A stretch of 24,457 nt of DNA from a virus (IMGVR_UViG_2534681674_000009); one strand, 5' to 3'; numbered from the stretch's first letter, positions 3,273-24,302 are shown. Numbers and translations are program-made. The notes: generated from the letters alone by a model not told the origin.

Positions 3273-3605
3273 ATGACGAGCAAAGAAACCTTTACCCATT
3301 ACCAGCCGCTGGGCAACAGTGACCCGGCTCATACCGCAACCGCGCCCGGCGGATTGAGTGCGAAAGCGTCTGCAATGACCCCGCTGATGCTGGACACCGC
3401 CACCCGTAAGCTGGTTGCGTGGGATGGCACCACCGACGGTGCTGCCGTTGGCATTCTTGCGGTTGCTGCTGACCAGACCAGCACCACGCTGACGTTCTAC
3501 AAGTCCGGCACGTTCCGTTATGAGGATGTGCTCTGGCCGGAGGCTGCCAGCGACGAGACGAAAAAACGGACCGCGTTTGCCGGAACGGCAATCAGCATCG
3601 TTTAA
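3273..3605 (+). CDS. D: Head decoration protein gpD
   Basis: [27 protein letters not shown]...[10 protein letters not shown], near-identical to recalled lambda D (110 aa); ATG at 3273 chosen over 3267 by RBS spacing and lambda N-terminus. Confidence 0.95.
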
Positions 3606-3623
3606 CCTGACCCTTCATCACTA

Positions 3624-3648
3624 GAGGCCGCCTGTGCGGTCTTTTTTT
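3624..3648 (+). terminator. Putative rho-independent terminator between D and E
   Basis: Stem GGCCGC / GCGGTC (one G.U pair) with CTGT loop, followed by a T7 run (3642-3648). Confidence 0.45.
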
Positions 3649-3661
3649 ACGGGATTTTTTT

Positions 3662-3937
3662 ATGTCGATGTACACAACCGCCCAGCTGCTGGCGGCAAAT
3701 GAGCAGAAATTTAAGTTTGATCCGCTGTTTCTGCGTCTCTTTTTCCGTGAGAGCTATCCCTTCACCACGGAGAAAGTCTATCTCTCACAAATTCCGGGAC
3801 TGGTAAACATGGCGCTGTACGTTTCGCCGATTGTTTCCGGTGAGGTTATCCGTTCCCGTGGCGGCTCCACCTCTGAATTTACGCCGGGATATGTCAAGCC
3901 GAAGCACTTAGCATGGCTTTCTGAGGCTTTCGTGTAG
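3662..3937 (+). pseudogene. E: Major capsid protein gpE, N-terminal fragment (interrupted after codon ~82 by the integrated element)
   Basis: MSMYTTAQLLAANEQKFKFDPLFLRLFFRESYPFTTEKVYLSQIPGLVNMALYVSPIVSGEVIRSRGGSTSEFTPGYVKPKH matches lambda E residues 1-82; after 3906 the frame reads 9 unrelated codons (LAWLSEAFV) and stops. Confidence 0.9.
3897..3906 (+). repeat. Left junction direct repeat (putative attL core) AGCCGAAGCA
   Basis: Identical 10-mer recurs at 16507-16516; phage-derived sequence ends here on the left and resumes there on the right. Confidence 0.65.
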
Positions 3938-4035
3938 TTGCTGGTTTTTACACTTAATCTTTTGATAATAAAGAATAAGTTTATCTGGTGCTTTCACTGA
4001 ATTTTCCTCGTTATCTGTGTGTTGCAATCATCTCT

Positions 4036-4055
4036 GTATTGCAGCTTGTATTGCT
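4036..4055 (+). repeat. Tandem GTATTGCAG / GTATTGC motifs (putative integrase arm-type sites, left arm)
   Basis: TGTATTGCAGCTTGTATTGC upstream of int; the same motif recurs in tandem at 16409-16432 near the right junction. Confidence 0.4.
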
Positions 4056-4231
4056 TTTTGGGGCTAAAAATGGCTGGCGAGAACAAACTGAGCGACAAAG
4101 CGCTTAAAGGATATCTGGGGAAACCCAGAGAAAAGCAGATCACCATTGCTGATGGAAAGGGGCTTTCTATTCGTGTGAGTACTAAAGGGTGAACCGCCCC
4201 GGGTTTCCTGGAGAGTATTTTATCTGTGAAC

Positions 4232-5122
4232 TCAGGCTGCCAGATCATTATTTCCGATGGAAGCATAATAAGCTTTTTCTGCTTCTGCCGGAGGAATATG
4301 GCCCAGCCTTTCCAGCAATCGTCGATTGTTATACCAGTCCACCCACGTTAGTGTGGCCAGTTCCACTTCTGTCCGGTTTTTCCAGCTATTACGGTGTATT
4401 ACCTCCGCTTTGTAAAGACCATTGATGCTCTCAGCCATCGCGTTGTCATACGAGTCGCCAGTACTCCCTGTTGATGCCAGTAATCCGGCTTCCTTAAGCC
4501 GCTGCGTGTAGGCCAGCGATACATACTGAGAACCTTTATCACTGTGATGGATTGTGCCGGACGGCCGACGGGCCCACAACGCCTGCTCCAGTGCATCCAG
4601 CACGAATGTTGTTTCCATGGATGATGAGACCTGCCATCCCACGATGTATCCGGCGAACACATCAATGATGAACGCCACATAAACGAAGCCCTGCCATGTG
4701 CTTACCCAGGTAAAATCAGCCACCCACAACTGGTCTGGACGTTCTGCCACGAACTGACGGTTTACGCGGTCGCATGCGGCAACGGCTTTCCGGCTGACGG
4801 TAGTGCGGACCTTTTTACCCCGGAGAACACCGGCAAGTCCCATAACTGCCATGAGACGTGCCACAGTGCATCTGGCCACTCTGATACCTTCCCGTAACAA
4901 CTGACGCCAGACTTTACGCACACCGTATACCTGGTGATTTTCATCGTATACGCGCTGTATCTCTTTCTTCAGCCAGTCATCGTGCTGCGCACGGGCACTG
5001 CGTTTATCCGGATGATGTCGCTGTTGCTGACAATGGTAATACGTTGACGGGGCAATATGCAGTTCGCTGCATACCGGTCCGACCCCGTACTGCTCACGCA
5101 GCTTATCCAGCAGTGGCATCAT
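4232..5122 (-). CDS. IS629-like transposase OrfB (DDE catalytic domain; normally made as OrfAB by frameshifting)
   Basis: [53 protein letters not shown]...[22 protein letters not shown]... matches recalled IS629/IS1203 OrfB. Confidence 0.9.
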
Positions 5123-5446
5123 TTTTCCAGAGGCGGTCGAACTCCGCCTTCGCAAAATAAGCGGAAGCCTGGCGAAGGATATCGTTACTGCGGCGCAGTT
5201 CACGATTTTCACGTTCCAGCTCTTTCAGACGCTGACGTTCAGCGCTGGTGAGCCCACCATCACCGCCCCCGGTATCCCGCTCATGCTGGCGAACCCAGAC
5301 ACGCAGAGTCTCCGGCGTACAGCCAATCTTTGGGGCAATGGAACTACGATTGCCGCCCACTGTGAGTCATATTCATCCTGACTTTCCAGAACCATACGAA
5401 TCGCCCGCTGACGGACTTCGGGGGAAAAACGAGTATTTTTAGTCAT
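5103..5446 (-). pseudogene. IS629-like OrfA, apparently frameshifted
   Basis: N-terminal [33 protein letters not shown] is in one frame (5225-5446) and the remainder [30 protein letters not shown]...[10 protein letters not shown] in another (5103-5360); junction near 5345-5350. Confidence 0.55.
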
Positions 5447-6620
5447 CCTGTTTACCTCTTTCTCAGGGAGTTTAGTCTCCAGGATTTCCGGGGCGGTTCA
5501 GGGGCTGTGAGCTTTGTTTTCTTCTACAGGTTAGCAGGTGGCCGGGCTGCTCCGGTCTGGCTAACGTTGGGTAAATATCCTGATATGTCACTCAAACAGG
5601 CAAGGGAAAAGCGCGACGAGTGCCGTGGTTGGTTGGCTGACAAACGTGATCCGCGTATCCAGATTAAGATTCAGGCTGAAGAACGCTTAAAGCCGGTTAC
5701 AGTGGAGGATGCACTAAATTACTGGTATGAAAATTACTGTAAGGTGCGTCGTAAAACTCATGCTGTAACGCTTGGCAGATTTCGAAAGCATATCTTTCCC
5801 TATATCGGTCATTTGCCCGTAAATGACACTCACCTATATGAATGGCTGGACTGTTTTGACCGAATTAAACGTAATGCACCAGTTATGGCGGCGTATGTTT
5901 TTTCTGACACTAAATTAGCTCTTCGTTTTTGTCGGGTACGCCAGTACGCGACGTGTGATGCTTTAAAGGATTTGCGCATGAGTGATGTGGGGCAGATTGC
6001 AGGTAAGCGGGATCGGGTTCTGGATGAAGCCGAACTCGGCCAGCTCTGGAAGGCAATTTTTGTCGAGCCTGATTTAAAACTAATGTCTGAATACACGCGA
6101 AAAATGTTTGTGCTTTGTACAGTATTTGGATGTCGAATGAGTGAAGCCCGATTATCAGAATGGAGCGAATGGAATCTCGAAAGTTGGGTTTGGACTGTAC
6201 CAAAAGATCACTCAAAAACTGGTGTTGAAATCGTCAGACCAGTACCTGAAATTCTACGACAGTGGGTAACGGATGTTCACGAAGAGACAAAACATACTGG
6301 TTATGTGCTGGGAAGTCTGCGAATTAGAGAAAGCGTAAGCAAGATTGGGGGGAAAATCGGTAAACGTTTGGGCCATGAAAAACAATGGTCACTACACGAC
6401 CTTAGAAGAACGCTATCTACTCATCTAAGTGATCTCGGTGTTGAATTTTATGTAGTAGAACAACTGTTAGGCCATGCGCTACCTGGCGTGGCAGGTGTTT
6501 ACAACCGGAGTAAGTTTATGGCTAAAAAACTGGATGCTCTGGAACTCTGGACTACATATCTCAATAGCATCGCAGGTGCTGATTCAAAAGTGACAATCCT
6601 CAAACAAAAGGTTGGTTAAC

Positions 6621-6848
6621 ATGAAAAAAATGGCAATTGTTGATAAAAAGGGTCTGGAGTACATTCCTAACATTGACCGAATGATCCGTGAGAAAGAATG
6701 TCGGGAGCTAACCACTCTTGCGAACAGCACACGCTGGAAGCTGGAGAAGGAAGGAAAATTTCCTAAGCGGATCAAGATTGGTTCCACTGCTGTTGCATAT
6801 CGTCTTTCAGAAGTGCAGGCATGGATTCGAGGTGAGTGGGTAGTTTAA
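6621..6848 (+). CDS. alpA: AlpA-like DNA-binding protein (putative excision/regulatory factor)
   Basis: Small basic ORF directly downstream of int with an HTH-like segment ECRELTTLANSTRWKLEKEGKFPKRIKIGSTAVAYRLSEVQAWI, typical of AlpA/Xis-like proteins next to P4-type integrases; ATG 6621 preferred over TTG 6612. Confidence 0.75.
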   Translation: MKKMAIVDKKGLEYIPNIDRMIREKECRELTTLANSTRWKLEKEGKFPKRIKIGSTAVAYRLSEVQAWIRGEWVV

Positions 6849-6874
6849 ATTATCTCAGAATAAAATATTATGAA

Positions 6875-6908
6875 TTACTGATTTGAGAATTTGTACTCAA
6901 ATCAGTAA
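6875..6908. terminator. Bidirectional hairpin between convergent genes
   Basis: Perfect 13-bp inverted repeat TTACTGATTTGAG ... CTCAAATCAGTAA with 8-nt loop, in an AT-rich spacer between the alpA-like (+) and membrane protein (-) genes. Confidence 0.55.
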
Positions 6909-6917
6909 TAACATTCT

Positions 6918-7454
6918 TTATAAGAGATTAAATCCAAATAAAGAGTAATCATATACCGGGGTGCATTGCATCCCACTGAATATGCTGATGTTTTTTTCTG
7001 TTTCTATCCTTTTTTCAATAAGTTGTTGTATATTTTTACAGTACAATTTGTGTGTGATGTTATTATCGTAAGCCTGATATAGCAACGTCAATGTTGATGC
7101 TATGAAACATGCAGAAAGAAAATGAACTAGTACATGTGAGCGTTTTTTGGTTGTCCATGATGCATTCGCTTGTGAAATATAAATCATTCTGAGAATGATA
7201 ATGATGATAGACAGTAACAGACCACTCAATAAAATAAGTATTGGGTTTGCGTATTTAATTAATGGTTGAGAGCAAAAAACTATTATAGCTCCTGTGACTG
7301 CGTATGAGAAAAAGGAGTAATTAAACTTCTTACTCCTTCTCTCAAGTATTTTAATTTCATCTTGTGTGGGGGTTTTAGATGCCTCTAATATAAGTTTATT
7401 AAATGTTTCTGTTATCTTGTTTTTTGTGTTTGTGGCTATTTTTTTTAGATTCAT
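6918..7454 (-). CDS. Hypothetical membrane protein (AT-rich accessory gene)
   Basis: 178-aa ORF with hydrophobic segments (YSFFSYAVTGAIIVFCSQPL, ILILLSGLLLSIIIIILRMIYI, VLVHFLSACFIASTLTLLY); base composition much more AT-rich than neighbours; no recognisable family. Confidence 0.55.
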   Translation of the reverse strand: MNLKKIATNTKNKITETFNKLILEASKTPTQDEIKILERRSKKFNYSFFSYAVTGAIIVFCSQPLIKYANPILILLSGLLLSIIIIILRMIYISQANASWTTKKRSHVLVHFLSACFIASTLTLLYQAYDNNITHKLYCKNIQQLIEKRIETEKNISIFSGMQCTPVYDYSLFGFNLL

Positions 7455-7804
7455 AGCATTCTAACTCCCTTAACTTATTTATTACTTTCTCTTTATGATA
7501 AGAGAGGGGAATGACTTGGTAAAGTGATTTGTCATTAATAATGATAATCCTTGCGATAAATATTTCTGCAAGTTATTTACCTGTTTGTTGCTATCTTGTT
7601 AAGCGTTGGGTGTGGTTTATGTTTGGAGCGACTTTATTTAATCGTGATTTTATGGATTTATATTTATATCCTGTAAGATAAGCGCATGTTAGTTCAGGAG
7701 TAGTGTCAGATAAAATTATTCGGAGTAGAACTACCTTTTCTGTTTATTGCCAGTATTTACATAGCAATGCGCCGTAGTTACTCACATCACGGCGCTGATA
7801 CTAA

Positions 7805-8110
7805 TTATTCAGATTCTTTGGCTTTACGCCGCTGGAGTTCTTCACGAGCGACGGCTACGAGTTGCCCGATTTCCTCCGCTGCCTTGATGCCGATTTGTTC
7901 GACCTTAGCTAAGGCATCCAGTGAAGACACGAGGGGATTTTCTCCGCTTCCTTCTGCCTGGCGGCGGGCGATTTCACCGCGCATGGCGGTTACGATAAAT
8001 CCGGCATTGCTTTCACCGTCCAGCTTAACGGATTCCATCCCTTGCATAACATCTAGTGGGACTCTGACAGTTGTCAGTTGTGATTTTGCGTTTTTGTTAG
8101 CCGTTGCCAT
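7805..8110 (-). CDS. Hypothetical protein, possible regulator (divergent from downstream operon)
   Basis: 101-aa ORF; sits head-to-head with the 8301+ operon across an intergenic region containing repeated operator-like half-sites. Confidence 0.5.
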   Translation of the reverse strand: MATANKNAKSQLTTVRVPLDVMQGMESVKLDGESNAGFIVTAMRGEIARRQAEGSGENPLVSSLDALAKVEQIGIKAAEEIGQLVAVAREELQRRKAKESE

Positions 8111-8300
8111 TTCTGAAACTCCTAATCATCGGTGTGTTTCAGTATACACAAAAAAAGAAATACAAAAAGCCTTGACGTGTGTTTCATGCGCTCATAACAT
8201 GAAACACACCGAAAGGATTGTTGAAATACAAAGAGCAACGCCCCGCAGTGCTGGGAACACATACGGGGCGTCTAACCAACAACGTAAACTAGGAGCCGTT
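8111..8300. promoter_or_regulatory. Divergent promoter/operator region
   Basis: TTGACG (8172-8177) then 17 bp then TAACAT (8195-8200); three copies of GTGTTTCA half-site (8133-8140 and 8179-8186 direct, 8200-8207 inverted), the latter two forming a palindrome over the -10; also inverted repeat GACGCCCCG...CGGGGCGTC at 8239-8273. Confidence 0.45.
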
Positions 8301-8498
8301 ATGGTTGCTGTAAATCATATACCACACCTTGTACACACACAAACGGCCTTTGTGTGGCGTTTTCTGGCACTGAGTGCCGGAGAATCTCAAATCATCCACG
8401 TAACCGCCTGGACGGAACGCGAAGCGCGTAGCCGTTGCCCGTCCGGTTGTGTTGCTGTATTCGCTGCAAAAATCCGCCAGGGAGTGAGTCATGCTTAA
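8301..8498 (+). CDS. Small hypothetical protein (possibly Icd-like)
   Basis: ATG at 8301 preceded by AGGAG (8291-8295); 65 aa MVAVNHIPHLVHTQTAFVWRFLALSAGESQIIHVTAWTEREARSRCPSGCVAVFAAKIRQGVSHA; family assignment is a weak recollection only. Confidence 0.45.
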   Translation: MVAVNHIPHLVHTQTAFVWRFLALSAGESQIIHVTAWTEREARSRCPSGCVAVFAAKIRQGVSHA

Positions 8499-8676
8499 AA
8501 CCTTCCGTGTATTTGCCCGAGCTGTTAACCCAATAGGCCACACAATTGGTATCGCTCAGAATGTGAAGGCTGTTAATGTTCAGACGGCTATTGCTGCGGT
8601 GAGAAGCGAATCATCAGAATATGGCTTATCACAAGTCATTATTTCAGCAGTGTATGAATTAAAAGAGGTGCATTAA
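8491..8676 (+). CDS. Small hypothetical protein
   Basis: 61-aa ORF whose start overlaps the preceding stop (translational coupling). Confidence 0.4.
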   Translation: MLKTFRVFARAVNPIGHTIGIAQNVKAVNVQTAIAAVRSESSEYGLSQVIISAVYELKEVH

Positions 8677-8834
8677 TGCAGGAAATCACATTACACGAAG
8701 CCGCTGAACGTGCGCACCAGACAGAAATTATTGCCGCCTTCTTGAGGTATACCCGAACAAAATTACAGATGCTGATATATCCGCACTGGCGAGCCTACTG
8801 GCGCGTCTTTCGGGAAGTGTCGCTAGTTTTTTGA
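8676..8834 (+). CDS. Small hypothetical protein (52 aa)
   Basis: ATG at 8676 overlapping the previous stop (TAATG), preceded by a strong RBS AGAGGTG (8664-8670); below the ORF-track length cutoff. Confidence 0.4.
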   Translation: MQEITLHEAAERAHQTEIIAAFLRYTRTKLQMLIYPHWRAYWRVFREVSLVF

Positions 8835-8866
8835 TTGAGGAAGAAAGTAAGCTGGTGGGGGATTAA

Positions 8867-9088
8867 ATGAATACAGAACGGGAAGTCTTTTTTAAATTGT
8901 TAGCATGTGCAGAAAGTTCATTAACTTTAAATAATTCAGCAAAAGCAATATTAAATATGTGGCTTGATTGCATAAATGACAATGAAGATGCAAATATTGC
9001 TTATGGCCTGTTGTCACTTATTGATGAAGCAGCAGAAAAACTCAATGACGCAATAAATAGTGCCCTGCTATCAAATAAGTCGAGTTAA
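8867..9088 (+). CDS. Small hypothetical protein (AT-rich)
   Basis: 73-aa ORF with GGGGGA RBS upstream; no recognisable family. Confidence 0.4.
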   Translation: MNTEREVFFKLLACAESSLTLNNSAKAILNMWLDCINDNEDANIAYGLLSLIDEAAEKLNDAINSALLSNKSS

Positions 9089-9105
9089 GTCGAGGAATAA
9101 ATAAT

Positions 9106-9405
9106 ATGGAAATGAAAAATTCTGGCTTTATTGCCAGCGGCCCCGCTCGGCCTGAATTTATGAACGGCGATATTTACCGCGATAAATACGGCGGCACGGT
9201 AACGATTAAAGGCGTGGCAGAACGGCGCATCACTTACCGTCGTGAGGGGTATAGCTATGACTGCGTGATGCCTGTTTATCAGTTCCGGCGTGATTTTTCC
9301 CTGGTATATGCCGCACCCCGCAGTAAGCCCATCAGCAGGGAAAAAGCGCGGGGAAACATCCAGAAAATGAAAAGCATGATTAACGCATTCAGGGGCAAAA
9401 AATGA
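9106..9405 (+). CDS. Hypothetical protein upstream of primase
   Basis: 99-aa ORF with GAGGA RBS; stop overlaps the primase start (ATGA). Confidence 0.5.
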   Translation: MEMKNSGFIASGPARPEFMNGDIYRDKYGGTVTIKGVAERRITYRREGYSYDCVMPVYQFRRDFSLVYAAPRSKPISREKARGNIQKMKSMINAFRGKK

Positions 9406-11153
9406 AACTGGCACCGAACTTAAAAAAACAGCCACGCGACAGACTGACAGAGATAATCATCTTTGCAGGTAGTGATGCGTGGAGCCATGCGAAAGAGTGG
9501 CAGGAATGGGCGGGTAAACATATTGCCGCCGACGATGTGCCGCCTGTCGTGTTGGCTGATGAGCAACTGAAAAACATCACCGATTACCGGATCATTGATG
9601 AAGATCGTCAGTGTGTGCGTGTTTACCGCGCAGGACATATCACAGAGCACAGCATGACGCAGATTGTTACGTTACTGGCTGTGGCTGGAGTGAAGACCGT
9701 ACACGAATACGCGGGGATTACTGACACCAGCCCAGTGGATTTATCCGACCAGTTGCCGCGACTCAAAGAGGAATGCGAGCGTGGGGAAAGCCTGGTGCTT
9801 AATCTTCCGACGAAGCAAAAGGCGCAACTTTCACAGATGGCAGACAGTGAGCGCGCGCAGCTGCTTGCCGAGCGCTTTGATGGCGTTTGTGTGCATCCGG
9901 AAAGTGAAATCGTTCACGTATGGCGCGGCGGGGTATGGTGTCCGATCAGCACAATGGAGCTGAGCCGCGAAATGGTGGCGATCTATTCAGAGCACAGGGC
10001 CACTTTCAGCAAACGCGTGATCAATAACGCCGTTGAAGCGTTAAAAGTTATTGCCGAACCAATGGGCGAGCCGTCCGGCGATTTGCTGCCGTTCGCCAAT
10101 GGTGCGCTTGACCTGAAAACGGGGGAATTTTCCCCGCACACGCCGGAGAACTGGATCACCACGCACAACGGCATTGAGTACACGCCACCAGCACCAGGGG
10201 AGAACATCCGCGATAACGCGCCAAACTTTCATAAATGGCTTGAGCACGCAGCCGGAAAAGACCCGCGCAAGATGATGCGTATATGTGCCGCGCTGTACAT
10301 GATTATGGCGAACCGGTACGACTGGCAGATGTTCATTGAGGCCACCGGAGACGGGGGAAGCGGTAAGAGTACATTTACCCATATTGCCACCCTGCTTGCT
10401 GGCAAACAGAACACCGTAAGCGCAGAGATGACATCACTCGATGATGCAGGAGGGCGTGCGCAGGTTGTCGGGAGTCGTCTTATCGTCCTTGCCGATCAGC
10501 CGAAATATACGGGGGAAGGCACGGGCATCAAGAAAATCACGGGAGGCGATCCCGTTGAAATTAACCCGAAATATGAGAAGCGATTCACGACGATAATAAG
10601 GGCGGTGGTACTGGCAACCAATAACGACCCGATGATCTTTACCGAACGGGCCGGAGGTGTGTCACGCCGTCGGGTGATTTTCCGGTTCGACAACATTGTA
10701 AGGGAGGACGAAAAAGACAAGGAATTACCGGAAAAGATAGCGGCAGAAATCCCCGTAATTATCCGCCGCTTGCTGGCTAATTTTGCTGACCCTGAAAAGG
10801 CACGGGCTTTATTACTGGAACAGCGTGACGGTGATGAAGCTCTGGCAATAAAGCAGCAAACGGATCCGGTTGTTGAGCTTTGCGCGGCGCTGGAGTTTCT
10901 GGAGGAAGCTCGTGGGCTAATGATGGGCGGTGGTGGTGACACCGTGAAGTACACGACCAGAAACAGCCTTTACCGTGTCTATATGGCCTTCATGGCATAT
11001 ACAGGAAAGGGGAAATGTTTGAGCGTGAATGAGTTCGGAAAGGCTATGAGGTCAGCGGCGAAAGTTTACGGATATGAATATATTACGCGAAAAGTTAAGG
11101 GAGTCACGCAGACCAACGCAACGACTACTGATGATTGCGATGCGTTTTTATAA
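9402..11153 (+). CDS. Primase-helicase, D5 / P4-alpha C-terminal-like (SF3 NTPase)
   Basis: 583-aa ORF with Walker A GDGGSGKST and Walker B-like hydrophobic run ending in D (RLIVLADQ); architecture resembles satellite/P4 replication initiators; immediately followed by iterons. Confidence 0.8.
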   Translation: MKLAPNLKKQPRDRLTEIIIFAGSDAWSHAKEWQEWAGKHIAADDVPPVVLADEQLKNITDYRIIDEDRQCVRVYRAGHITEHSMTQIVTLLAVAGVKTVHEYAGITDTSPVDLSDQLPRLKEECERGESLVLNLPTKQKAQLSQMADSERAQLLAERFDGVCVHPESEIVHVWRGGVWCPISTMELSREMVAIYSEHRATFSKRVINNAVEALKVIAEPMGEPSGDLLPFANGALDLKTGEFSPHTPENWITTHNGIEYTPPAPGENIRDNAPNFHKWLEHAAGKDPRKMMRICAALYMIMANRYDWQMFIEATGDGGSGKSTFTHIATLLAGKQNTVSAEMTSLDDAGGRAQVVGSRLIVLADQPKYTGEGTGIKKITGGDPVEINPKYEKRFTTIIRAVVLATNNDPMIFTERAGGVSRRRVIFRFDNIVREDEKDKELPEKIAAEIPVIIRRLLANFADPEKARALLLEQRDGDEALAIKQQTDPVVELCAALEFLEEARGLMMGGGGDTVKYTTRNSLYRVYMAFMAYTGKGKCLSVNEFGKAMRSAAKVYGYEYITRKVKGVTQTNATTTDDCDAFL

Positions 11154-11164
11154 AAAATGGCAAT

Positions 11165-11400
11165 GGTTATCTACCTTGTCTACCTGACTGAAATAAAATA
11201 CTTTTATTTCAATGTATTAATGCAGGTAGATAACTATTTTTCACTGTCTACCTGTTATCTACCTTATCTACCCATTTTTGTAGACAGGTAAGGAGACGGG
11301 TAGAGATGAGGTAGACAGCTATTTGGGGCTGTCTACCTCCCTGAAACCCGCGCCATTACTGGCCTGATAACTAATCAGGTAGACAAGGTAGACAAGGTGG
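11165..11400. repeat. Iteron cluster (putative origin of replication)
   Basis: At least ten copies of (T/G)TCTACC / GGTAGAC in both orientations (e.g. 11168-11185, 11247-11273, 11280-11318, 11331-11337, 11377-11397) around an AT-rich block (11190-11222), directly downstream of the primase gene. Confidence 0.7.
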
Positions 11401-11442
11401 TGGTGCACAAAAAACTTTTTAAACGAGGGGGTAAAAATAAAA

Positions 11443-11685
11443 ATGCACACATCAGGAAAACTGAACAAACATATAAAGCCACATTACCGCGCCCTTGATA
11501 TGGCTGAACACTGGCTAAGGGTGGCGATTAAGGCAATAGACCGCAACGCCGGGGAAGGATACGCGAAAGCACATCCCGAACTGATAAGCGCATTCATGAC
11601 AACGGCGGCTGCAAACTTTGCCACGCTGACCGAACGGGAGATTGCCGAAGCGGAGGAAGTGACAACCATCAATATTAAGTCCTGA
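11443..11685 (+). CDS. Hypothetical protein
   Basis: 80-aa ORF with GAGGGGG RBS upstream. Confidence 0.45.
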   Translation: MHTSGKLNKHIKPHYRALDMAEHWLRVAIKAIDRNAGEGYAKAHPELISAFMTTAAANFATLTEREIAEAEEVTTINIKS

Positions 11686-11696
11686 GAGCAGGCAGC

Positions 11697-12146
11697 ATGA
11701 CGGCGCAAATAGCAGCTTACGGGCGGCTGGTGGACGACCCACAGGTAAAACATACCAGCAAGGGAACACCCATGACACTGGCACGGATGGCGGTATCTTT
11801 GCCATGCAGCCAGGCAGATGACGGAACGGCGACGATGTGGTTATCTGTGCTGGCGTTTGGCAGACAAGCCGACACGCTGGCAAAGCATCACAAAGGCGAA
11901 CTCCTGAGCGTGGCGGGTAATATGCAGGTGAGCCAGTGGACTGGACAGAACGGTGAAACGCGGCAGGGCTGGCAGGTTATCGCAGACAGCGTAATCAGTG
12001 CGCGAACGGTGCGACCGGGCGGCAAAAAAGATCAACAGGGTCAGGCTACTGACGCACTGAACAGAGCAAAACAACAGGCAGATCAGCAAGGAAGCCATCC
12101 ACCAGTGGGAGATAATGAGCAATGGGGAGATGATATTCCGTTTTAA
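11697..12146 (+). CDS. ssb: Single-stranded DNA-binding protein
   Basis: 149 aa with OB-fold-like N-terminal part, Gly/Gln-rich linker and acidic C-terminal tip ending DDIPF, the hallmark SSB tail. Confidence 0.8.
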   Translation: MTAQIAAYGRLVDDPQVKHTSKGTPMTLARMAVSLPCSQADDGTATMWLSVLAFGRQADTLAKHHKGELLSVAGNMQVSQWTGQNGETRQGWQVIADSVISARTVRPGGKKDQQGQATDALNRAKQQADQQGSHPPVGDNEQWGDDIPF

Positions 12147-12163
12147 ATATTGCCAATAAAAAA

Positions 12164-12190
12164 GGCCGGAAAAAAAAATAAATTTTCCGG
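12164..12190. terminator. Hairpin after ssb (possible terminator)
   Basis: CCGGAAAA ... TTTTCCGG stem with A-rich loop; A/T-rich on both sides. Confidence 0.35.
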
Positions 12191-12365
12191 CATGCTACAT
12201 AAATCCAGACCAAAGGGAGTGAAGATATTAACACTAATTATCCGTGCTGAAGTTGTCATCCCAAAACTTTATACAACATTGCACTCGGTTGCATGTATTC
12301 GCATGACAAATATCGGTGATAGCATATATCCACAATTATTTTTAATGAATGCAAAGAGGATGCGT

Positions 12366-13406
12366 ATGGTTGATTTATATTCGCCTACCCAGCTTGTACA
12401 GGTGGTTAATGCTGTAGATGTACAAAAACAACTAAATGCGTTGTTTACCAGTTTGTTTTTTACTCGCTCGGTAATGTTTGAATCGCGCGATATTATTCTT
12501 GATACAATCGACGATCCAAATATCCCAATTGCAGCGTTTTGTTCTCCTATGGTGGGTAGTAAAGTTTCACGTGACGAAGGGTACGAATCAAAAACAATTC
12601 GTCCAGGCTATATGAAGCCGAAAAGCAGCATTGATCCAAATAAGTTAGCTGTGCGCCCTGCTGGTGTATCACCTGAGCAATACAATGCTTTTGGAGCGCG
12701 TAATATTAAAGTTAAACAGGCGATTGTAAATCAGGCTAAAGCTATTCGTGCACGTATTGAATGGCTTGCCGTTCAGGCAATCACAACGGGGAAAAATATC
12801 ATTGAGGGCGATGGTATTGAACGTTATGAGCTGGACTGGAATATTAAACCACAAAATATCATCACTCAGTCTGGCGGTGCTGAGTGGTCAGGTAAGGATA
12901 AAGAAACTTTTGATCCAAATGATGATATTGAGAGCTACGCAGAATTTAGTGAGGGCGTCACTAATATCATCATTATGGGCGGTAATGTATGGAAGAAATA
13001 CCGTTCATTCAGAGCGATAAAAGAGGCTCTGGATACCCGTCGTGGTTCTAATTCCGAACTGGAAACGGCCCTTAAAGACCTTGGTGATTCGGTGAGTTTT
13101 AAAGGGTATATGGGCGATGTTGCGATTGTTGTATACAGCGGGCGTTATACCGACGAGGACGGAACTGAAAAACATTTCCTTGATCCTGATTTGATGGTGC
13201 TTGGCAATACGGCTCTTCAGGGGATTGTCGCCTATGGCGGTATTCAGGATCCGGAGCTAATCCGAATGGGGCTGACTAAAGCCGAACTTGCACCGAAAAA
13301 CTATATTGTGCCTGGTGATCCGGCTATTGAATATGTGCAGACACATTCAGCACCACAGCCAATACCGGCCCGCATCAATCGTTTTGTTACCGTTCGCATT
13401 GGCTAA
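12366..13406 (+). CDS. Major capsid protein, lambda gpE homologue encoded by the element
   Basis: Start at ATG 12366 (RBS AAGAGG 12354-12359). Product aligns along its length with lambda E, e.g. ITQSGGAEWSGKDKETFDPNDDIESYA...RRGSNSELETALKDLGDSVSFKGYMGDVAIVVYSG vs lambda ITQSGGTEWSKRDKSTYDPTDDIEAYA...RRGSNSELETAVKDLGKAVSYKGMYGDVAIVVYSG; clearly a diverged paralogue, not a duplicate. Confidence 0.85.
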   Translation: MVDLYSPTQLVQVVNAVDVQKQLNALFTSLFFTRSVMFESRDIILDTIDDPNIPIAAFCSPMVGSKVSRDEGYESKTIRPGYMKPKSSIDPNKLAVRPAGVSPEQYNAFGARNIKVKQAIVNQAKAIRARIEWLAVQAITTGKNIIEGDGIERYELDWNIKPQNIITQSGGAEWSGKDKETFDPNDDIESYAEFSEGVTNIIIMGGNVWKKYRSFRAIKEALDTRRGSNSELETALKDLGDSVSFKGYMGDVAIVVYSGRYTDEDGTEKHFLDPDLMVLGNTALQGIVAYGGIQDPELIRMGLTKAELAPKNYIVPGDPAIEYVQTHSAPQPIPARINRFVTVRIG

Positions 13407-13415
13407 GGGGGAGCA

Positions 13416-13757
13416 ATGGCTACTCATTACACTGAACTCATGTCTGGCACTGAAGCACTGGTTACTACGCTGGGGATATTTTCAGCCAATAAAGGGGTAA
13501 TACCTGCGTTTACGCCACTGATGCAGGAAGATGCAACTGGTGCGCTAGTGGTATGGGATGGAACGAGCGCAGGCAAAGCGGTTTATGTTTCCGCTGTACA
13601 AATCGACACAGCGAAAAAAACACAGGCACAGGTTTATAAGACAGGTGTTTTAAATGTTGATGCTCTGAACTGGCCTGAGTCTGTAAGAGAACTGTCGGCA
13701 AAGGTTGCCGCGTTTGTTGGCTCAGGTATTTCTGTTCAGCCGCTGGCTCGTGTGTAA
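13416..13757 (+). CDS. Head decoration protein, lambda gpD homologue encoded by the element
   Basis: 113 aa; ...LVVWDGTSAGKAVYVSAVQ...YKTGVLNVDALNWPE...AAFVGSGISV parallels lambda D ...[19 protein letters not shown]...[15 protein letters not shown]...[11 protein letters not shown]; RBS AAGGGGGA. Confidence 0.8.
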   Translation: MATHYTELMSGTEALVTTLGIFSANKGVIPAFTPLMQEDATGALVVWDGTSAGKAVYVSAVQIDTAKKTQAQVYKTGVLNVDALNWPESVRELSAKVAAFVGSGISVQPLARV

Positions 13758-13768
13758 AGGGGGATACA

Positions 13769-14152
13769 ATGCAGAATGATTACAATGACCTTAAGCCAAT
13801 TGCCGAAATGATGTACCCGAATCCAGCTGTAGAGGAATTAAAAGCTATCGCTGACAAAATGTGTTTAAGCGAGCGCCTTGTTGATATGAATCAGGTGATG
13901 GAAATTACAACCCTGAGTCGGCGTACACTGCTAAACCTTGAGGCTAGTGGAGAGTTCCCGGAGCGTGTGCAGGTTACGGAAGGGCGTAAGGCCTGGTATT
14001 TAAGTGAAGTGATCGACTGGATAAATAATATTCCTCGCGCTTCTGAATATTGCCGCGTACCTGTCCCAAAAAAGCCAGATGCGGCGCTATGCCTCAAGAT
14101 TGAGCGTGTACGCCGCAATGCACGGGATGGTCGCTATAAGCTGATTGGTTGA
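13769..14152 (+). CDS. Second AlpA-like HTH protein
   Basis: 127 aa; segment MNQVMEITTLSRRTLLNLEASGEFPERVQVTEGRKAWYLSEVIDWINN resembles AlpA/MerR-type HTH; RBS AAGGGGGA. Confidence 0.6.
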   Translation: MQNDYNDLKPIAEMMYPNPAVEELKAIADKMCLSERLVDMNQVMEITTLSRRTLLNLEASGEFPERVQVTEGRKAWYLSEVIDWINNIPRASEYCRVPVPKKPDAALCLKIERVRRNARDGRYKLIG

Positions 14153-14194
14153 TGAAATTAGGGCCCGCTCTGGCTGGCGGGTCCTTTCCGGCGA

Positions 14195-14340
14195 TCTGAC
14201 AGGCTACGGGGCGTCAGGCGCGCGGGTTTTCTCTATTTATGAGCATTTTAAGGGGACTGGTGGTGGTTTTGTTGTTCGCTATATCTGTATGAATAATAAG
14301 AGAAAAATACAATCAATACACCAACCTGAAACAGTAATTA
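14195..14340 (+). other. cos site (cosN plus cosB-like region) of the element
   Basis: GACAGGCTACGGGGCGTCAGGCGCGCGGGTTTTCTCTATTTATGAGCATTTT closely parallels recalled lambda cos GACAGGTTACGGGGCGGCGACCTCGCGGGTTTTCGCTATTTATGAAAATTTT; lies directly upstream of a Nu1-like gene as in lambda. Confidence 0.65.
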
Positions 14341-14353
14341 AGTTGTGGTATCA

Positions 14354-14896
14354 ATGAAATTACACCTGATGAACAAAAAAAACATGGCAAAAAGTTGCCG
14401 TGTAAGCGCCACTGCGTTCGATAAGTGGGGAGTGATTCCCGTCGAGCGTAAGGGCCGTGAGGCGTTCTATGATGTTGCCAGTGTAATAGATAATCGGGTT
14501 AACAATGCAATCAGCCAGATTACAAACGAAACGGGCGATATTGATGACGATGAACTTTTACGCGTCAGGATCAGATTACTGACAGCACAGGCAGAGGCGC
14601 AGGAGCTTAAAAACGAGCGCGAACGCGGCGACGTTATTGATACAGAGTTTTGTATGTATGTTCTTTCCAAACTGGCGAGTCAGATTTCATCTATCATGGA
14701 CAGCCTGCCGCTTACCATGCAAAGGCGCTTCCCACAGATGACTCCGGCTATGCTGGATGGACTTAAAAAGGAAGTGGCTAAAGCCTGTAATGCCAGTGCC
14801 GGCGTTGCTGACAACCTCCCACAGATACTGGCTGATTATCTGATGGAAAGTACAGGAAACGTACCGGATAAGTTGCAGCTGAATAAGGATAAGTAA
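14354..14896 (+). CDS. Terminase small subunit, lambda Nu1-like
   Basis: ...RLLTAQAEAQELKNERERGDVIDTEFCMYVLSKLASQISSIMDSLPLTMQRRFP matches lambda Nu1 ...RLTRAQADAQELKNARDSAEVVETAFCTFVLSRIAGEIASILDGLPLSVQRRFP; start codon uncertain (ATG 14354, 14369 or 14384). Confidence 0.8.
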   Translation: MKLHLMNKKNMAKSCRVSATAFDKWGVIPVERKGREAFYDVASVIDNRVNNAISQITNETGDIDDDELLRVRIRLLTAQAEAQELKNERERGDVIDTEFCMYVLSKLASQISSIMDSLPLTMQRRFPQMTPAMLDGLKKEVAKACNASAGVADNLPQILADYLMESTGNVPDKLQLNKDK

Positions 14897-14907
14897 CGTA
14901 GTACGCT

Positions 14908-15183
14908 ATGACTGAATCCGAACTACTGAAAGTAATCTGCTATGCTGGTGGAGTCAGCCACCAGCATGACGAACAGGCCACGCAGCCGGGCAGTGTCACC
15001 GCTGAAAATTACGCTCGTGTGGTTGCTGAGGTTATGTGGCGTGACGGTATAGAACTGAACGGACAGGATTGCTTAGTCATCCGCACCAAAGTGCTGGCTA
15101 TACTGGCAGCTAGGCGGAGGCAGGGACAACGCCAGAACGTTGCATCGTACCAGTGGAAGAAGCCTGACAGACTGCGGCGATAA
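14908..15183 (+). CDS. Hypothetical protein downstream of terS
   Basis: 91-aa ORF; no recognisable family; weak RBS. Confidence 0.35.
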   Translation: MTESELLKVICYAGGVSHQHDEQATQPGSVTAENYARVVAEVMWRDGIELNGQDCLVIRTKVLAILAARRRQGQRQNVASYQWKKPDRLRR

Positions 15184-15337
15184 CTCTTTGATTTTCTCGA
15201 CGGCCCCAAAATGGGCCTTACCATAGCCAGCTAATAAATGAGCAAGCCTCAAAAGTGAGGTTTGTGGCCGTTTGGCCTATTCATATGCTAACTCGTTGAT
15301 ATTCCTGACGACGCAAATTTACGCCTTGTGGCTGGTA

Positions 15338-15363
15338 GTCGAATTGCAAATTTGCAACTCGAC
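15338..15363. promoter_or_regulatory. 26-bp near-perfect palindrome (putative operator)
   Basis: GTCGAATTGCAAATTTGCAACTCGAC, self-complementary except one position pair; intergenic between the terS module and the Abi-like gene. Confidence 0.35.
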
Positions 15364-15585
15364 TATGAAACTACAGGTAGTTTGGGTAGTAAAAGCAACA
15401 CACTGATTTTGGGGCTTCTTCGCGATACCTAATATTATGGTATCGGTGGAAGAGATATCGTTTCTCATAGGTTAGCACCGAGGGCGGAGTTCCGCCCTCA
15501 TCGAAAAATTGCTTACGAGTCGTCAAAATAAATTAATCGACTGAGTATAATGATTAACTAATTGCTCGTGTTACTTCATTATACG

Positions 15586-16347
15586 TTATTTCCCATCTTT
15601 AAGGTTTAACCAAGTGTTAATTAAAAAAAGAGCCATTGAGCCTGATAAATTTACTGCAAGTTCGGCATGCCTTGGGGATGGCTTAATTGATGAGCTGTTC
15701 GTTCCATGTGCATCACCGAGTTTATTACGAAGAGTACCTAACCCATTTACAACTGCAGAACAACCGCCGAGAATTTGTTTGAAGATATTTTCAGTATGTT
15801 GGTCGGCAGATAGGTTAAGTTCTTTTGAAAGAGTTTTATAAAGCTCTGACATTTCAATATTTTTATTATTATACTGAATGCCCATATCATCAAGAATGTG
15901 TTTGCAAACTGTTTCAAGAAGTGTTCTTGCGGAGGTTATCGCACCATCCGGATCTGTATGGCGCCGTTCAAGTGCTTTTATCCAAACGGCGTGGACTCCA
16001 TCCTCGTTAAACTTTCTTAATACATCAGATATGTCTTCATCCGCTGGAGCTTTATTTTTCCCTTCTAGATAGTCCAGCATCGGCTGAAATGCCTTATAAA
16101 TCAAATCTCTCCGGGGGGCATACTTTTCAGTCTTTTTTATAAATCCCCAAAATTCTTTTAGTGAGCGATTAGTTCTCACAAACTCTGGTAATAGCTGATG
16201 TAAAGGAGGATTTTGTAAGAAATATGTTCTTAGAAGCAAATAATCATTATTAGCTTCATCCTGGGCTCCTGTAGCTCTTGCAATTAGTATGTTTTGAAGC
16301 GCTACTGCGCGCTCTAGGTCATTTTGAAGGGTATCTATAATATTCAT
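15586..16347 (-). CDS. Abi-like protein with HEPN-type Rx4-6H motif (putative abortive-infection / defence effector)
   Basis: 253-aa ORF on the opposite strand at the element's right end; C-terminal LGTLRNKLGDAHG contains R-x6-H as in HEPN/Abi_C family proteins. Confidence 0.55.
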   Translation of the reverse strand: MNIIDTLQNDLERAVALQNILIARATGAQDEANNDYLLLRTYFLQNPPLHQLLPEFVRTNRSLKEFWGFIKKTEKYAPRRDLIYKAFQPMLDYLEGKNKAPADEDISDVLRKFNEDGVHAVWIKALERRHTDPDGAITSARTLLETVCKHILDDMGIQYNNKNIEMSELYKTLSKELNLSADQHTENIFKQILGGCSAVVNGLGTLRNKLGDAHGTNSSSIKPSPRHAELAVNLSGSMALFLINTWLNLKDGK

Positions 16348-16408
16348 AACAAATCTTTATTCACTTCATTTGTGGGTTGATAATTGAATGGTTTGTACAT
16401 TGATTTCT

Positions 16409-16432
16409 GTGTATTGCAGTGTGTATTGCAGC
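16409..16432 (+). repeat. Tandem GTGTATTGCAG repeats (putative integrase arm-type sites, right arm)
   Basis: GTGTATTGCAGTGTGTATTGCAGC, same motif as at 4036-4055. Confidence 0.4.
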
Positions 16433-16506
16433 ATAGCCATTCAGGTAAAGATTATGCTCTATTTTTCCTCTTATATCATTCACATACTTACACCATTGAC
16501 TCATGT

Positions 16507-16516
16507 AGCCGAAGCA
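16507..16516 (+). repeat. Right junction direct repeat (putative attR core) AGCCGAAGCA
   Basis: Identical to 3897-3906; downstream sequence TGAGGTGAATCCGCAGATGACC continues lambda E. Confidence 0.65.
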
Positions 16517-17297
16517 TGAGGTGAATCCGCAGATGACCCTGCGTCGCCTGCCGGATGAAGATCCGCAGAATCTGGCGGACCCGGCTTACCGCCGCCGTCG
16601 CATCATCATGCAGAACATGCGTGACGAAGAGCTGGCCATTGCCCAGGTCGAAGAGATGCAGGCAGTTTCTGCCGTGCTTAAGGGCAAATACACCATGACC
16701 GGTGAAGCCTTTGATCCGGTTGAGGTGGATATGGGCCGCAGTGCGGCAAACAACATCACACAGTCCGGTGGCACGGAGTGGAGCAAGCGTGACAAGTCCA
16801 CGTATGACCCGACCGACGATATCGAAGCCTACGCGCTGAACGCCAGCGGCGTGGTGAATATCATCGTGTTTGATCCGAAAGGATGGGCGCTGTTCCGTTC
16901 CTTCAAAGCCGTCAGGGATAAGCTGGATACCCGTCGCGGCTCTCATTCCGAGCTGGAGACAGCGGTAAAAGACCTGGGCAAAGCGGTGTCTTATAAGGGA
17001 ATGTATGGCGATGTGGCCATCGTCGTGTATTCCGGACAGTACGTGGAAAACGGCGTCAAAAAGAACTTCCTGCCGGACAACACGATGGTGCTGGGGAACA
17101 CTCAGGCACGCGGTCTGCGTACCTATGGCTGTATTCAGGATGCGGACGCACAGCGCGAAGGCATTAACGCCTCTGCCCGTTACCCGAAAAACTGGGTGAC
17201 TACCGGCGATCCGGCGCGAGAGTTCACCATGATTCAGTCAGCACCGCTGATGCTGCTGGCTGACCCTGATGAGTTCGTGTCCGTACAACTGGCGTAA
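16507..17297 (+). pseudogene. E: Major capsid protein gpE, C-terminal fragment (codons ~80-341)
   Basis: (PKH)EVNPQMTLRRLPDEDPQNLADPAYRRRRIIMQNMRDEELAIAQVEEMQAV...EFTMIQSAPLMLLADPDEFVSVQLA, near-identical to lambda E from residue ~83; no in-frame ATG, upstream in-frame TAG at 16506-16508. Confidence 0.9.
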
Positions 17298-17301
17298 TCA
17301 T

Positions 17302-17325
17302 GGCCCTTCGGGGCCATTGTTTCTC
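17302..17325 (+). terminator. Hairpin after E (possible terminator)
   Basis: GGCCC TTCG GGGCC followed by a T-rich tract ATTGTTTCTCT. Confidence 0.35.
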
Positions 17326-17338
17326 TGTGGATGAGTCC

Positions 17339-17734
17339 ATGACGAAAGATGAACTGATTGCCCGTCTCCGCTCGCTGGGTGAACAACTGAACCGTGATGT
17401 CAGCCTGACGGGGACGAAAGAAGAACTGGCGCTCCGTGTGGCAGAGCTGGAAGAGGAGCTTGATGACACGGATGACGCAGCCGGTCAGGACACGTCTGTC
17501 AGCCCGGAAAATGCGCTGACCGGACATGAAAATGAGGTGGTATCAGCACAGACGGATACCGTGACTGATACGGCTGCTCTGGTCACGGTTGTGGCACTGG
17601 TGACGCTGCATACCGATGCACTTCACGCCACGCGGGATGAACCTGTGGCATTTGTGCTGCCGGGAACGGCGTTTCGTGTCTCTGCCGGTGTGGCAGCCGA
17701 AATGACAGAACGTGGCCTGGCCAGAATGCAATAA
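17339..17734 (+). CDS. FI: DNA packaging protein gpFI
   Basis: MTKDELIARLRSLGEQLNRDVSLTGTKEELALRVAELEEELDD...GVAAEMTERGLARMQ, matching recalled lambda FI (132 aa); start at ATG 17339 rather than upstream ORF start. Confidence 0.9.
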   Translation: MTKDELIARLRSLGEQLNRDVSLTGTKEELALRVAELEEELDDTDDAAGQDTSVSPENALTGHENEVVSAQTDTVTDTAALVTVVALVTLHTDALHATRDEPVAFVLPGTAFRVSAGVAAEMTERGLARMQ

Positions 17735-17745
17735 CGGGAGGCGCT

Positions 17746-18099
17746 GTGGCTGATTTCGATAACCTGTTCGATGCTGCCATTGCCCGCGCCGATGAAACGA
17801 TACGCGGGTACATGGGAACGTCAGCCACCATGACATCCGGTGAGCAGTCCGGCGCAGTAATACGTGGTGTTTTTGATGACCCTGAAAATATCAGCTATGC
17901 CGGACAGGGCGTGCGCGTTGAAGGCTCCAGCCCGTCCCTGTTTGTCCGGACTGATGATGTGCGGCAACTGCGGCGTGGTGACACGCTGACCATTAACGGC
18001 GAGATGTTCTGGGTGGACCGTGTTTCTCCGGATGACGGAGGGAGTTGTTATCTCTGGCTCAACCGTGGGCAACCACCGGCAGTTAACCGGCGACGATAA
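17746..18099 (+). CDS. FII: Head-tail connector gpFII
   Basis: MADFDNLFDAAIARADETIRGYMGTSATMTSGEQSGAVIRGVFDDPENISYAGQGVRVEGSSPSLFVRTDD..., near-identical to lambda FII. Confidence 0.95.
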   Translation: MADFDNLFDAAIARADETIRGYMGTSATMTSGEQSGAVIRGVFDDPENISYAGQGVRVEGSSPSLFVRTDDVRQLRRGDTLTINGEMFWVDRVSPDDGGSCYLWLNRGQPPAVNRRR

Positions 18100-18113
18100 A
18101 CGCAGGGTGAATT

Positions 18114-18647
18114 ATGGCGATAAAAGGGCTTGATCAGGCGATTGAAAATCTGAGCCGGGTTCGTAAAAACGCCATTCCGGCGGCTTCAGCAATGGCCATT
18201 AACCGCGTGGCCACAACGGCGATTAATCAGTCTTCATCACAGGTTGCCCGGGAGACAAAGGTACGCCGGAAACTGGTAAAGGAACGGTCCAGACTGAAAC
18301 GGGCCACGGTCAGAAATCCGAATGCCAGAATTATCGTTAAACGCGGTGATCTCCCTGTGATTAAGCTGGGGATCAGGATGCTGGGCCGTCGTCCGGACAG
18401 CATACTTAAAGCTGGTCAGCATCGGTATCAGCGGGCATTTATCCAGCGATTAAAAAATGGTCGCTGGCATGTCATGCAGCGTGTGGCCGGGAAAAACCGT
18501 TACCCCATTGATGTGGTGAAAATCCCGATGGCGGCCCCACTGAAACAGGCGTTTGATGAGAATATTGACCGTATCCGGCGTGAACGTCTGCCCGGAGAAC
18601 TGGCATACGCGCTGAAACAACAACTTAGGATTGCGATAAAACGATGA
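18114..18647 (+). CDS. Z: Tail completion protein gpZ
   Basis: MAIKGLDQAIENLSRVRKNAIPAASAMAINRVA... and C-terminus ...KNGRWHVMQRVAGKNRYPIDVVKIPMA... match lambda Z. Confidence 0.93.
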   Translation: MAIKGLDQAIENLSRVRKNAIPAASAMAINRVATTAINQSSSQVARETKVRRKLVKERSRLKRATVRNPNARIIVKRGDLPVIKLGIRMLGRRPDSILKAGQHRYQRAFIQRLKNGRWHVMQRVAGKNRYPIDVVKIPMAAPLKQAFDENIDRIRRERLPGELAYALKQQLRIAIKR

Positions 18648-19039
18648 AACATACTGATATCCGTGCGGCAGTGCTGGATGCACTGGAGCTGCATGAACAC
18701 GGGGCGACGCTGTTTGATGGTCGCCCCGTTGTTTTTGACGAAGAGGATTTTCCGGCCGTCGCGGTTTATCTGACGGATGCAGAGTATACCGGTGAAGAGC
18801 TGGATGCAGATACCTGGCAGGCGGAGCTGCATATTGAAGTTTTCCTGCCTGCTCAGGTGCCGGATTCAGAGCTGGATGCGTGGATGGAGTCCCGGATTTA
18901 TCCGGTGATGAGCGATATCCCGGCACTGGCAGGACTGATTACCACGATGGTTACGCAGGGCTATGAGTATCGTCGTGATGACGATATGGCGTTATGGAGT
19001 TCTGCAGATCTGACTTATTCCATTACATACGAGATGTGA
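18644..19039 (+). CDS. U: Tail terminator gpU
   Basis: [95 protein letters not shown]..., near-identical to lambda U. Confidence 0.95.
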
Positions 19040-19046
19040 GGACGAT

Positions 19047-19799: not shown

Positions 19800-19812
19800 A
19801 CGGAGGTAATAC

Positions 19813-24292: not shown

Positions 24293-24302
24293 ATCCTGTT
24301 TT

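Follow-up and report, generated by a model that had tools for sequence, protein, structure and literature searches.

Phage-inducible chromosomal islands (PICIs) located inside late genes of their own helper prophage were named helper-embedded PICIs (HE-PICIs) by Tommasini, Mageeney & Williams 2023 (NAR Genom Bioinform 5:lqad036; PMC10111431), with the 11-kb Eco567.11capE of Escherichia coli NRG857c (hereafter 11capE) as type element. That survey counted 491 HE-PICIs at 14 sites in cognates of the lambda late genes, of which 201 occupy E:Phage_cap_E:80, the commonest site. Quantitative PCR and deep sequencing under mitomycin C showed that the composite prophage excises and replicates first and that the satellite then excises precisely, restoring E (PMC10111431). 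Here we analyse a viral DNA stretch of 24,457 nt (IMGVR_UViG_2534681674_000009; "the window", with coordinates counted from its first base) in which a 12.6-kb integrase-bearing island lies inside E, the gene for the major capsid protein of a lambda-like prophage, and we compare this island with 11capE and other satellites.

The model Gram-negative cos-type PICI, EcCICFT073 (Fillol-Salom et al. 2018 ISME J; 2019 Mol Cell), has the int-alpA-primase layout in common with the window island, along with lambda-family capsid and decoration homologues in its late zone, a lambda-like cos and a lambdoid helper. Its own insertion site is chromosomal, so that any effect on the helper is exerted in trans, whereas the window island is helper-embedded. 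Split genes restored by precise excision at a defined time, termed regulated gene integrity or active lysogeny, are known from the skin element in sigK and from phi10403S in comK. HE-PICIs depart from these cases in that the interrupted gene belongs to the prophage and the switch serves the satellite, not the cell.

Insertion into the helper capsid gene

The elements that define the insertion are as follows.

3662..3906, plus strand: helper E 5′ fragment, codons 1-81 and two bases of codon 82; the open reading frame (ORF) runs into the island and stops at 3937
3897..3906, plus strand: attL core AGCCGAAGCA, an exact repeat and the same block as in the PMC10111431 supplement
4033..4056, plus strand: doubled arm-type motif tcTGTATTGCagctTGTATTGCtt, starting 131.5 bp downstream of the core centre
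16408..16431, plus strand: doubled arm-type motif TGTGTATTGCAGTGTGTATTGCAG, ending 81.5 bp upstream of the core centre
16507..16516, plus strand: attR core AGCCGAAGCA, an exact repeat
16517..17297, plus strand: helper E 3′ fragment, last base of codon 82, codons 83-341 and stop

Removal of 3907-16516, which takes out the island with one core copy (12,610 bp, or 11,296 bp once an IS629 copy and its target duplication are subtracted), joins 3662-3906 to 16517-17297 in a single uninterrupted ORF of 341 codons. Its product aligns with lambda gpE (PDB 7vi9) from residues 1-341 on 1-341 with no gaps and five substitutions, and the reconstructed 300-bp attB matches uninterrupted major capsid genes of actual E. 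coli genomes at 100% identity. Within the 341-residue gpE, whose residues 5-339 correspond to Phage_cap_E profile positions 1-328, the core covers codons 79-82. GC content is about 58% in the flanks and 30-55% inside the island.

The original prediction, made from the sequence without database searches, had E colinear with its lambda counterpart up to the left junction and resuming at the right one, and the gapless alignment bears this out. Its coordinates hold for the break at 3906 and are slightly offset on the other side, where base 16517 completes codon 82 and codon 83 starts at 16518. The identical 10-mer that it placed at both junctions is there, and the left fragment (ORF 3662-3937) does end after nine foreign codons, LAWLSEAFV, before its stop. 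The statement that the right fragment has no in-frame start was mistaken, as a GTG at 16521 (codon 84) could serve for an N-terminally truncated product of 258 amino acids.

A repeated 10-mer is by itself uninformative here, as the window contains 616 direct 10-mer pairs. What makes AGCCGAAGCA significant is that it is the longest word common to both junctions within ~100 bp on either side and that its two copies, the only ones in the window (none on the minus strand), lie exactly at both breakpoints of E colinearity, a placement with a chance of ~1e-6. Identity between attL and attR stops at this 10-bp block, and the island brings no replacement sequence for E at its junctions.

Arm-type repeats near both island ends, also part of the original prediction, were confirmed. 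TGTATTGC occurs five times in the window against a chance expectation of ~0.75 copies on both strands, and four of the five are paired in tandem, one doublet lying at 4035-4054 and the other at 16410-16429. The HE-PICI family motif is a doubled tgTGTATTGCantgTGTATTGCa, for which the distance from the attP centre is 81±2 bp on the upstream side and 132±2 bp on the downstream side (PMC10111431), and in the attP reconstructed from the window the doubled motifs stand at 81.5 and 131.5 bp.

In 11capE we find the same E target codon, a 10-bp identity block of like type, doubled TGTATTGC motifs with the same spacing, and the same orientation and order of gene zones. The window attL is nearly identical to attL entries for E:Phage_cap_E:80 in the published supplement, where the core 'agccgaagca' appears 85 times; the core alleles of the window (AGCCGAAGCA) and of NRG857c (AACCCAAGCA) differ and both are found there (PMC10111431). 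The island is oriented as late gene E. Its integrase, once repaired in silico, is 99.3% identical to the 11capE protein (WP_000896726.1), which by identity to the type places it in the HE-PICI clade; the gene is disrupted in this copy. AlpA, the island capsid protein E′ and a late helix-turn-helix protein are each 100% identical to their 11capE counterparts, the decoration protein D′ 94.7%, and the primase only 47%, a module swap.

The observation in the original prediction is thus real and was correctly read: an element is integrated within the gene that encodes the major capsid protein of a lambda-like prophage. We are confident that the segment is an 11capE-type HE-PICI which used its own tyrosine integrase at E:Phage_cap_E:80, with the mechanism described for the family, and that in this copy an IS629 insertion in int has most likely locked it. 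Everything from the phenomenon and the family to the exact site, its core and the arm motif had appeared in print in 2023, and novelty is correspondingly low; what had been put forward as an unusual interference strategy is the described HE-PICI configuration at its commonest site.

Occupied and empty sites in E. coli genomes

We surveyed 5426 complete E. coli genomes and 50,697 phage records. The attL junction, taken as 150 bp each of E and island sequence, was found in 173 of the genomes and the uninterrupted site in 3102, so both intact E and the same element at the same site, which the original prediction had proposed to look for among related prophages, are well represented. These figures add an independent count from complete genomes: the E site is occupied in ~3.2% of them, in keeping with the published estimate of ~5.4% for all HE-PICI sites. 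Island matches at 96-99.9% identity occur in many strains. The whole island matched none of the phage records, in which IS629 gave the only matches.

Four loci were inspected in detail (GN06489, fS58a, KMi006 and NRG857c; L001 to L004 in the coordinates below, L004 being the type element). In each the island sits within a lambda-type head-tail operon between 5′ and 3′ pseudogenes annotated "major capsid protein" and encodes an intact integrase of 411 amino acids. The recurrence of this family between split capsid pseudogenes elsewhere in E. coli bears out the earlier view of the island as a satellite of a lambdoid prophage whose E it disrupts, and the conserved core and arm motifs, the precise restoration of E and the same junction in 173 genomes show site-specific integration as opposed to rearrangement.

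An IS629 copy in the integrase gene

At the left end of the island the integrase gene and the insertion sequence (IS) within it are arranged as follows.

4070..4189, plus strand: N-terminal 40 codons of the tyrosine integrase, cut within the Arm-DNA-bind_3 domain by IS629
4190..5500, minus strand: IS629 (IS3 family), 1311 bp, terminal repeats TGAACCGCCCCGG, orfB 5212-4232, orfA frameshifted, ALIL pseudoknot 5163-5048
5504..6619, plus strand: tyrosine integrase codons 41-411, from the Pfam scan and protein comparison after repair

The boundaries of the IS were set by comparison with IS-free islands, and on either side of the insertion stands one copy of its 3-bp target duplication, GGG (4187-4189 and 5501-5503). 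Deleting the IS and one copy of the duplication yields a 411-residue integrase that is also 99.8% identical (410/411) to the integrase of another capE island. The insertion point is codon 40, inside the Arm-DNA-bind_3 domain (residues 7-93). An integrase gene at the left end had been predicted, which is right for the plus-strand tyrosine integrase, split as it is; the 326-residue minus-strand ORF at 4232-5212 carries an rve "integrase core" domain and is the IS629 OrfB transposase, not the island recombinase.

This IS629 copy is 99.6% identical to the one annotated in phage BP-4795. It measures 1311 bp as against 1310 bp there, and the frame of orfA is lost after ...QWAAI; the extra base may leave the copy unable to transpose alone, or may be a sequencing error. 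Its ALIL frameshift pseudoknot is intact (5163-5048), and a search of the whole window against Rfam at gathering thresholds returned nothing except this IS3-family structure.

The split that IS629 makes in int falls at codon 40, within the domain for arm binding, and probably keeps the island locked in place and helper E from being restored; precise late excision is expected to fail in this copy for the same reason. The two att sites and the four arm motifs are all intact, so that mobilisation by a related integrase in trans would still be possible. The insertion looks recent, because the island between the IS and the right-end cargo (5500-14241) is 99.9% identical to the fS58a island, whose integrase is whole. 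IS hits inside capE islands are not unique to this window, since the capE-site island of strain FDAARGOS_1296 (NZ_CP070066.1 3571635-3585244) has an IS66-family insertion.

Island genes

Pfam scans of all ORFs of at least 50 amino acids, complemented by the sources named, gave the following content to the right of the integrase gene.

6621..6848, plus strand: AlpA, excisionase/regulator (Pfam)
6918-9088, mixed strands: dynamic zone of small ORFs (Pfam scans and annotation of relatives)
6918..7454, minus strand: 178-residue ORF of low GC (~30%), in the dynamic zone
7805..8110, minus strand: YlcI/YnfO family small protein (RefSeq annotation in related islands)
8301..8498, plus strand: Icd-like ORF, a name taken over from the annotated fS58a island (99.9% identical), with no Pfam hit
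9106-9405, plus strand: DUF4222 protein, in the replication module (9106..11153)
9402-11153, plus strand: D5_N/DUF5906 primase, in the replication module
11697..12146, plus strand: single-strand DNA-binding protein (SSB; Pfam)
12366..13406, plus strand: island major capsid protein E′, Phage_cap_E (Pfam, protein alignment)
13416..13757, plus strand: island head-decoration protein D′, HDPD of lambda-D type, 39% identical to helper D
13769..14152, plus strand: second AlpA-family helix-turn-helix protein, 127 amino acids (Pfam)
14177..14249, plus strand: cos-like site with 86% identity to the cos of a lambda-type helper
14354..14896, plus strand: Nu1-like small terminase TerS′ (Pfam)
14908-15183, plus strand: ORF with no assigned function, between terS′ and the AbiJ-like gene
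15586..16347, minus strand: AbiJ-like abortive-infection protein, Abi_C, cargo beside attR (Pfam; PADLOC)

This is the layout of a Gram-negative PICI, with Integration, dynamic, Replication and Late zones in that order over 11,296 bp without the IS, and the Pfam content of all island ORFs fits it, with no tail or lysis genes. The genes int, alpA, primase and E′ all lie on the plus strand, in the same direction as E.

The island carries homologues of E, D and Nu1 (41%, 39% and 35% identical to the helper proteins, respectively) that had gone unremarked in the original prediction. E′ has 3bqw, the "putative capsid protein of prophage", as its nearest solved structure, a likeness counted among the features in common with EcCICFT073. 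Because the island has its own E homologue, the composite still holds one intact capsid gene, E′. The earlier conclusion that the prophage has lost its capsid protein therefore needs qualification: helper E is split, but in this family the split is reversible by design and the island's E′ is intact; in this copy the loss of helper E is probably permanent.

Within the dynamic zone the ORF at 6918..7454 appears membrane-protein-like by eye and is oriented against the remaining island genes; 11capE and the other islands inspected have it too, and Pfam and PADLOC gave no significant match. A permissive Rfam search of 6800-9450 for the C4/isrK immunity RNAs known in some PICIs returned none at E ≤ 1. 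The possibility of a P4-like satellite was considered on account of the D5_N/DUF5906 primase and AlpA and was rejected, no ORF having a Pfam hit to Psu, Sid or Delta and Rfam giving no C4/isrK RNA.

Proposed mechanism

By analogy with the type element, for which the composite prophage was demonstrated to excise and replicate as one unit (PMC10111431), the following order of events would apply to an intact island of this kind. Late in induction, recombination by Int and AlpA across the 10-bp core would remove the island precisely, a step also shown for the type element, restoring E and releasing a circular satellite. Before that, the helper would make no coat protein of its own, a situation that the authors call "regulated gene integrity" and that would benefit the satellite. 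A parasite of the virus, lodged in its coat-protein gene, would in this way control when and whether the virus builds heads; this was described in 2023 and the window is a further instance.

Since the island is oriented like the late operon, antiterminated late transcription would be expected, as the authors of the family description also infer, to read from the D/E stump into int, alpA and the island late genes. Promoter and terminator scans over 3550-6900 gave counts at the level of shuffled sequence and are uninformative on such read-through. The island may replicate by means of its own primase and origin. Packaging would start from the island cos and use the helper large terminase, presumably recruited by the Nu1-like TerS′ and not by Rpp, while E′ and D′ might form an alternative or back-up shell. 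In the copy studied here, IS629 at int codon 40 most likely immobilises the island unless a related integrase acts in trans, and helper E would stay permanently split, with E′ the only intact major capsid gene of the composite. This natural "locked" int::IS629 variant could be used to test whether E′ and D′ can substitute for helper E and D.

Several points weigh against this interpretation. Virions of the type helper and satellite could not be recovered, so that satellite transfer is putative for the family, and many HE-PICI helpers look truncated (PMC10111431). Deletion of the related capsid or decoration gene of EcCICFT073 did not relieve interference, and the packaged DNA was all phage-sized; for this reason any role of E′ and D′ is hypothetical. 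The window covers the helper late genes from portal to L only, with the early region, Nu1/A and cos of the helper outside it. As to the locked state, a GTG at 5507 still opens an int fragment of 370 residues, for which residual catalytic activity is possible, and the int::IS629 junction is present in 0 of the 5426 complete genomes.

Alternative explanations

The most serious alternative takes the segment for a decayed and domesticated remnant, a defence or cargo cassette fixed in a cryptic prophage and outside any helper-satellite cycle. It differs from the explanation preferred here in the present state of the locus only, not in its origin. The IS629-split int, the AbiJ-like cargo, the truncated appearance of many published helpers and the lack of a prophage early region inside the window would all suit such a remnant, yet every other island gene is intact, the 99.9% identity to an island with a whole integrase speaks for a recent IS insertion, the helper late genes from portal to L are open, and att sites and arm motifs are intact, so that a related Int could mobilise the island in trans. 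On balance we regard the remnant as possible and distinctly less likely than a locked HE-PICI. A capsid-forming PICI (cf-PICI), which builds a whole head and steals only tails, comes to mind on seeing that the island encodes capsid and decoration proteins together with a small terminase. Among the ORFs of at least 50 amino acids there is nevertheless none for a portal, for a prohead protease or scaffold, for a large terminase, for HNH or for a head-tail connector, and E′ belongs to the lambda E family of classical Gram-negative PICIs such as EcCICFT073, which makes the cf-PICI reading very improbable.

The two explanations that would remove site-specific integration altogether deserve even less credence. 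An assembly artefact, with an island from elsewhere joined chimerically to a lambdoid prophage, might be suspected from the exact window version (IS629 in int plus AbiJ-like cargo), which was found in 0 of the 5426 complete genomes; it is contradicted by two clean junctions with a common 10-bp core, by the attL junction in 173 independently assembled genomes, by the split-E architecture of all four loci examined and by the precise excision shown at this site for the type element (PMC10111431), and we dismiss it almost entirely. We are equally disinclined to accept homologous or illegitimate recombination between helper E and island E′, without integrase, during late-gene capture. The E′ product does read GYMKPKS where helper E has GYVKPKH, and the authors of the family description raise a possible involvement of integrases in the capture of late genes beside this site (PMC10111431), but E′ lies ~8.5 kb inside the island, away from the junctions, which for their part show the conserved core, have arm motifs spaced as published for the family and restore E without loss or gain of a base. 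An HE-PICI integrated by its own integrase and most likely locked by IS629 is thus the explanation that we retain.

cos-like site and putative packaging genes

The cos-like site of the island is followed by terS′. In its cosN the 12-nt block GGGCGTCAGGCG differs from the canonical GGGCGGCGACCT at 5 of 12 positions, while the lambda cosN flanks are kept. The fS58a and KMi006 islands have this variant too, and the canonical block is found in the helper cos of fS58a and in the GN06489 island (compared spans: L002 1601-1673 and 16960-17039, L001 15141-15231, L003 reverse complement 14676-14766). A 60-nt query around the variant cosN matched 80 of the 5426 genomes, and a full-text literature search for the variant block gave no relevant mention, its sole match being an unrelated Streptomyces paper. 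The altered cohesive-end bases are relevant to how cos-type satellites gain packaging specificity.

In TerS′ the C-terminal two-thirds of helper Nu1 are conserved and the N-terminal, DNA-binding part is divergent. Compared with PDB sequences it had no hit, neither to lambda Nu1 nor to Rpp; the late helix-turn-helix protein (13769..14152) is AlpA-like and likewise matched no solved Rpp, in both cases by comparison of sequences. EcCICFT073 redirects packaging through Rpp, which binds the helper TerS, whereas the window island has no sequence-detectable Rpp and a full-length Nu1-like TerS′. The succession of a cos-like site and a full-length Nu1 homologue with conserved C-terminus and divergent N-terminus points to a TerS′ that would bind the island's own cosB and recruit the helper large terminase, unlike the Rpp mechanism of EcCICFT073. 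SaPI-type satellites with their own TerS, in which satellite TerS and helper large terminase package satellite DNA, would be a parallel by inference; their TerS is pac-type and Gram-positive, whereas TerS′ is cos-type, of the Nu1 family and putative in function.

These features allow us to speculate, with considerable doubt, that the subtype runs a largely private head and packaging system (E′, D′, TerS′ and the altered cos) and borrows from the helper the large terminase, portal, protease/scaffold and tail, in which case the present copy would be a frozen chimera with the satellite's as its only usable capsid gene. The 2023 description does not address such a reading: it states the type element to be without terS and suggests the island capsid as a "backup" copy (PMC10111431). 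Possession of a Nu1-type small terminase thus sets some capE-site islands apart from the type element.

Module exchange and variable cargo

The differences from 11capE lie in the IS629-interrupted int, in the primase and in the right end, which has HEPN and DUF262 genes and no terS in 11capE and a Nu1-like terS with an AbiJ-like gene in the window. The islands are mosaics, as comparison of their sequences indicates. Between the window primase (9402-11153) and its counterpart in the type element (L004 5930-7750) identity is only 47%, with L003 also compared, as against 99-100% for Int, AlpA and E′; whole modules are therefore exchanged between islands with one att site in common.

The right end of the window island (terS′, the unassigned ORF and the AbiJ-like gene) is common to KMi006 and 40 other genomes, and fS58a, like NRG857c, has the HEPN and DUF262 genes instead. 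A variable cargo slot with anti-phage genes lies between the late genes and attR (window 14242-16506; L002 17040-19300; L004 10830-13100). In GN06489 this slot holds terS′ and the unassigned ORF, without the AbiJ-like gene. On the helper side, the E-to-L region of the window (16517-24457) is closest to lambda-like Stx1a-converting phages, at 96.8% identity over 99% of its length in the phage collection.

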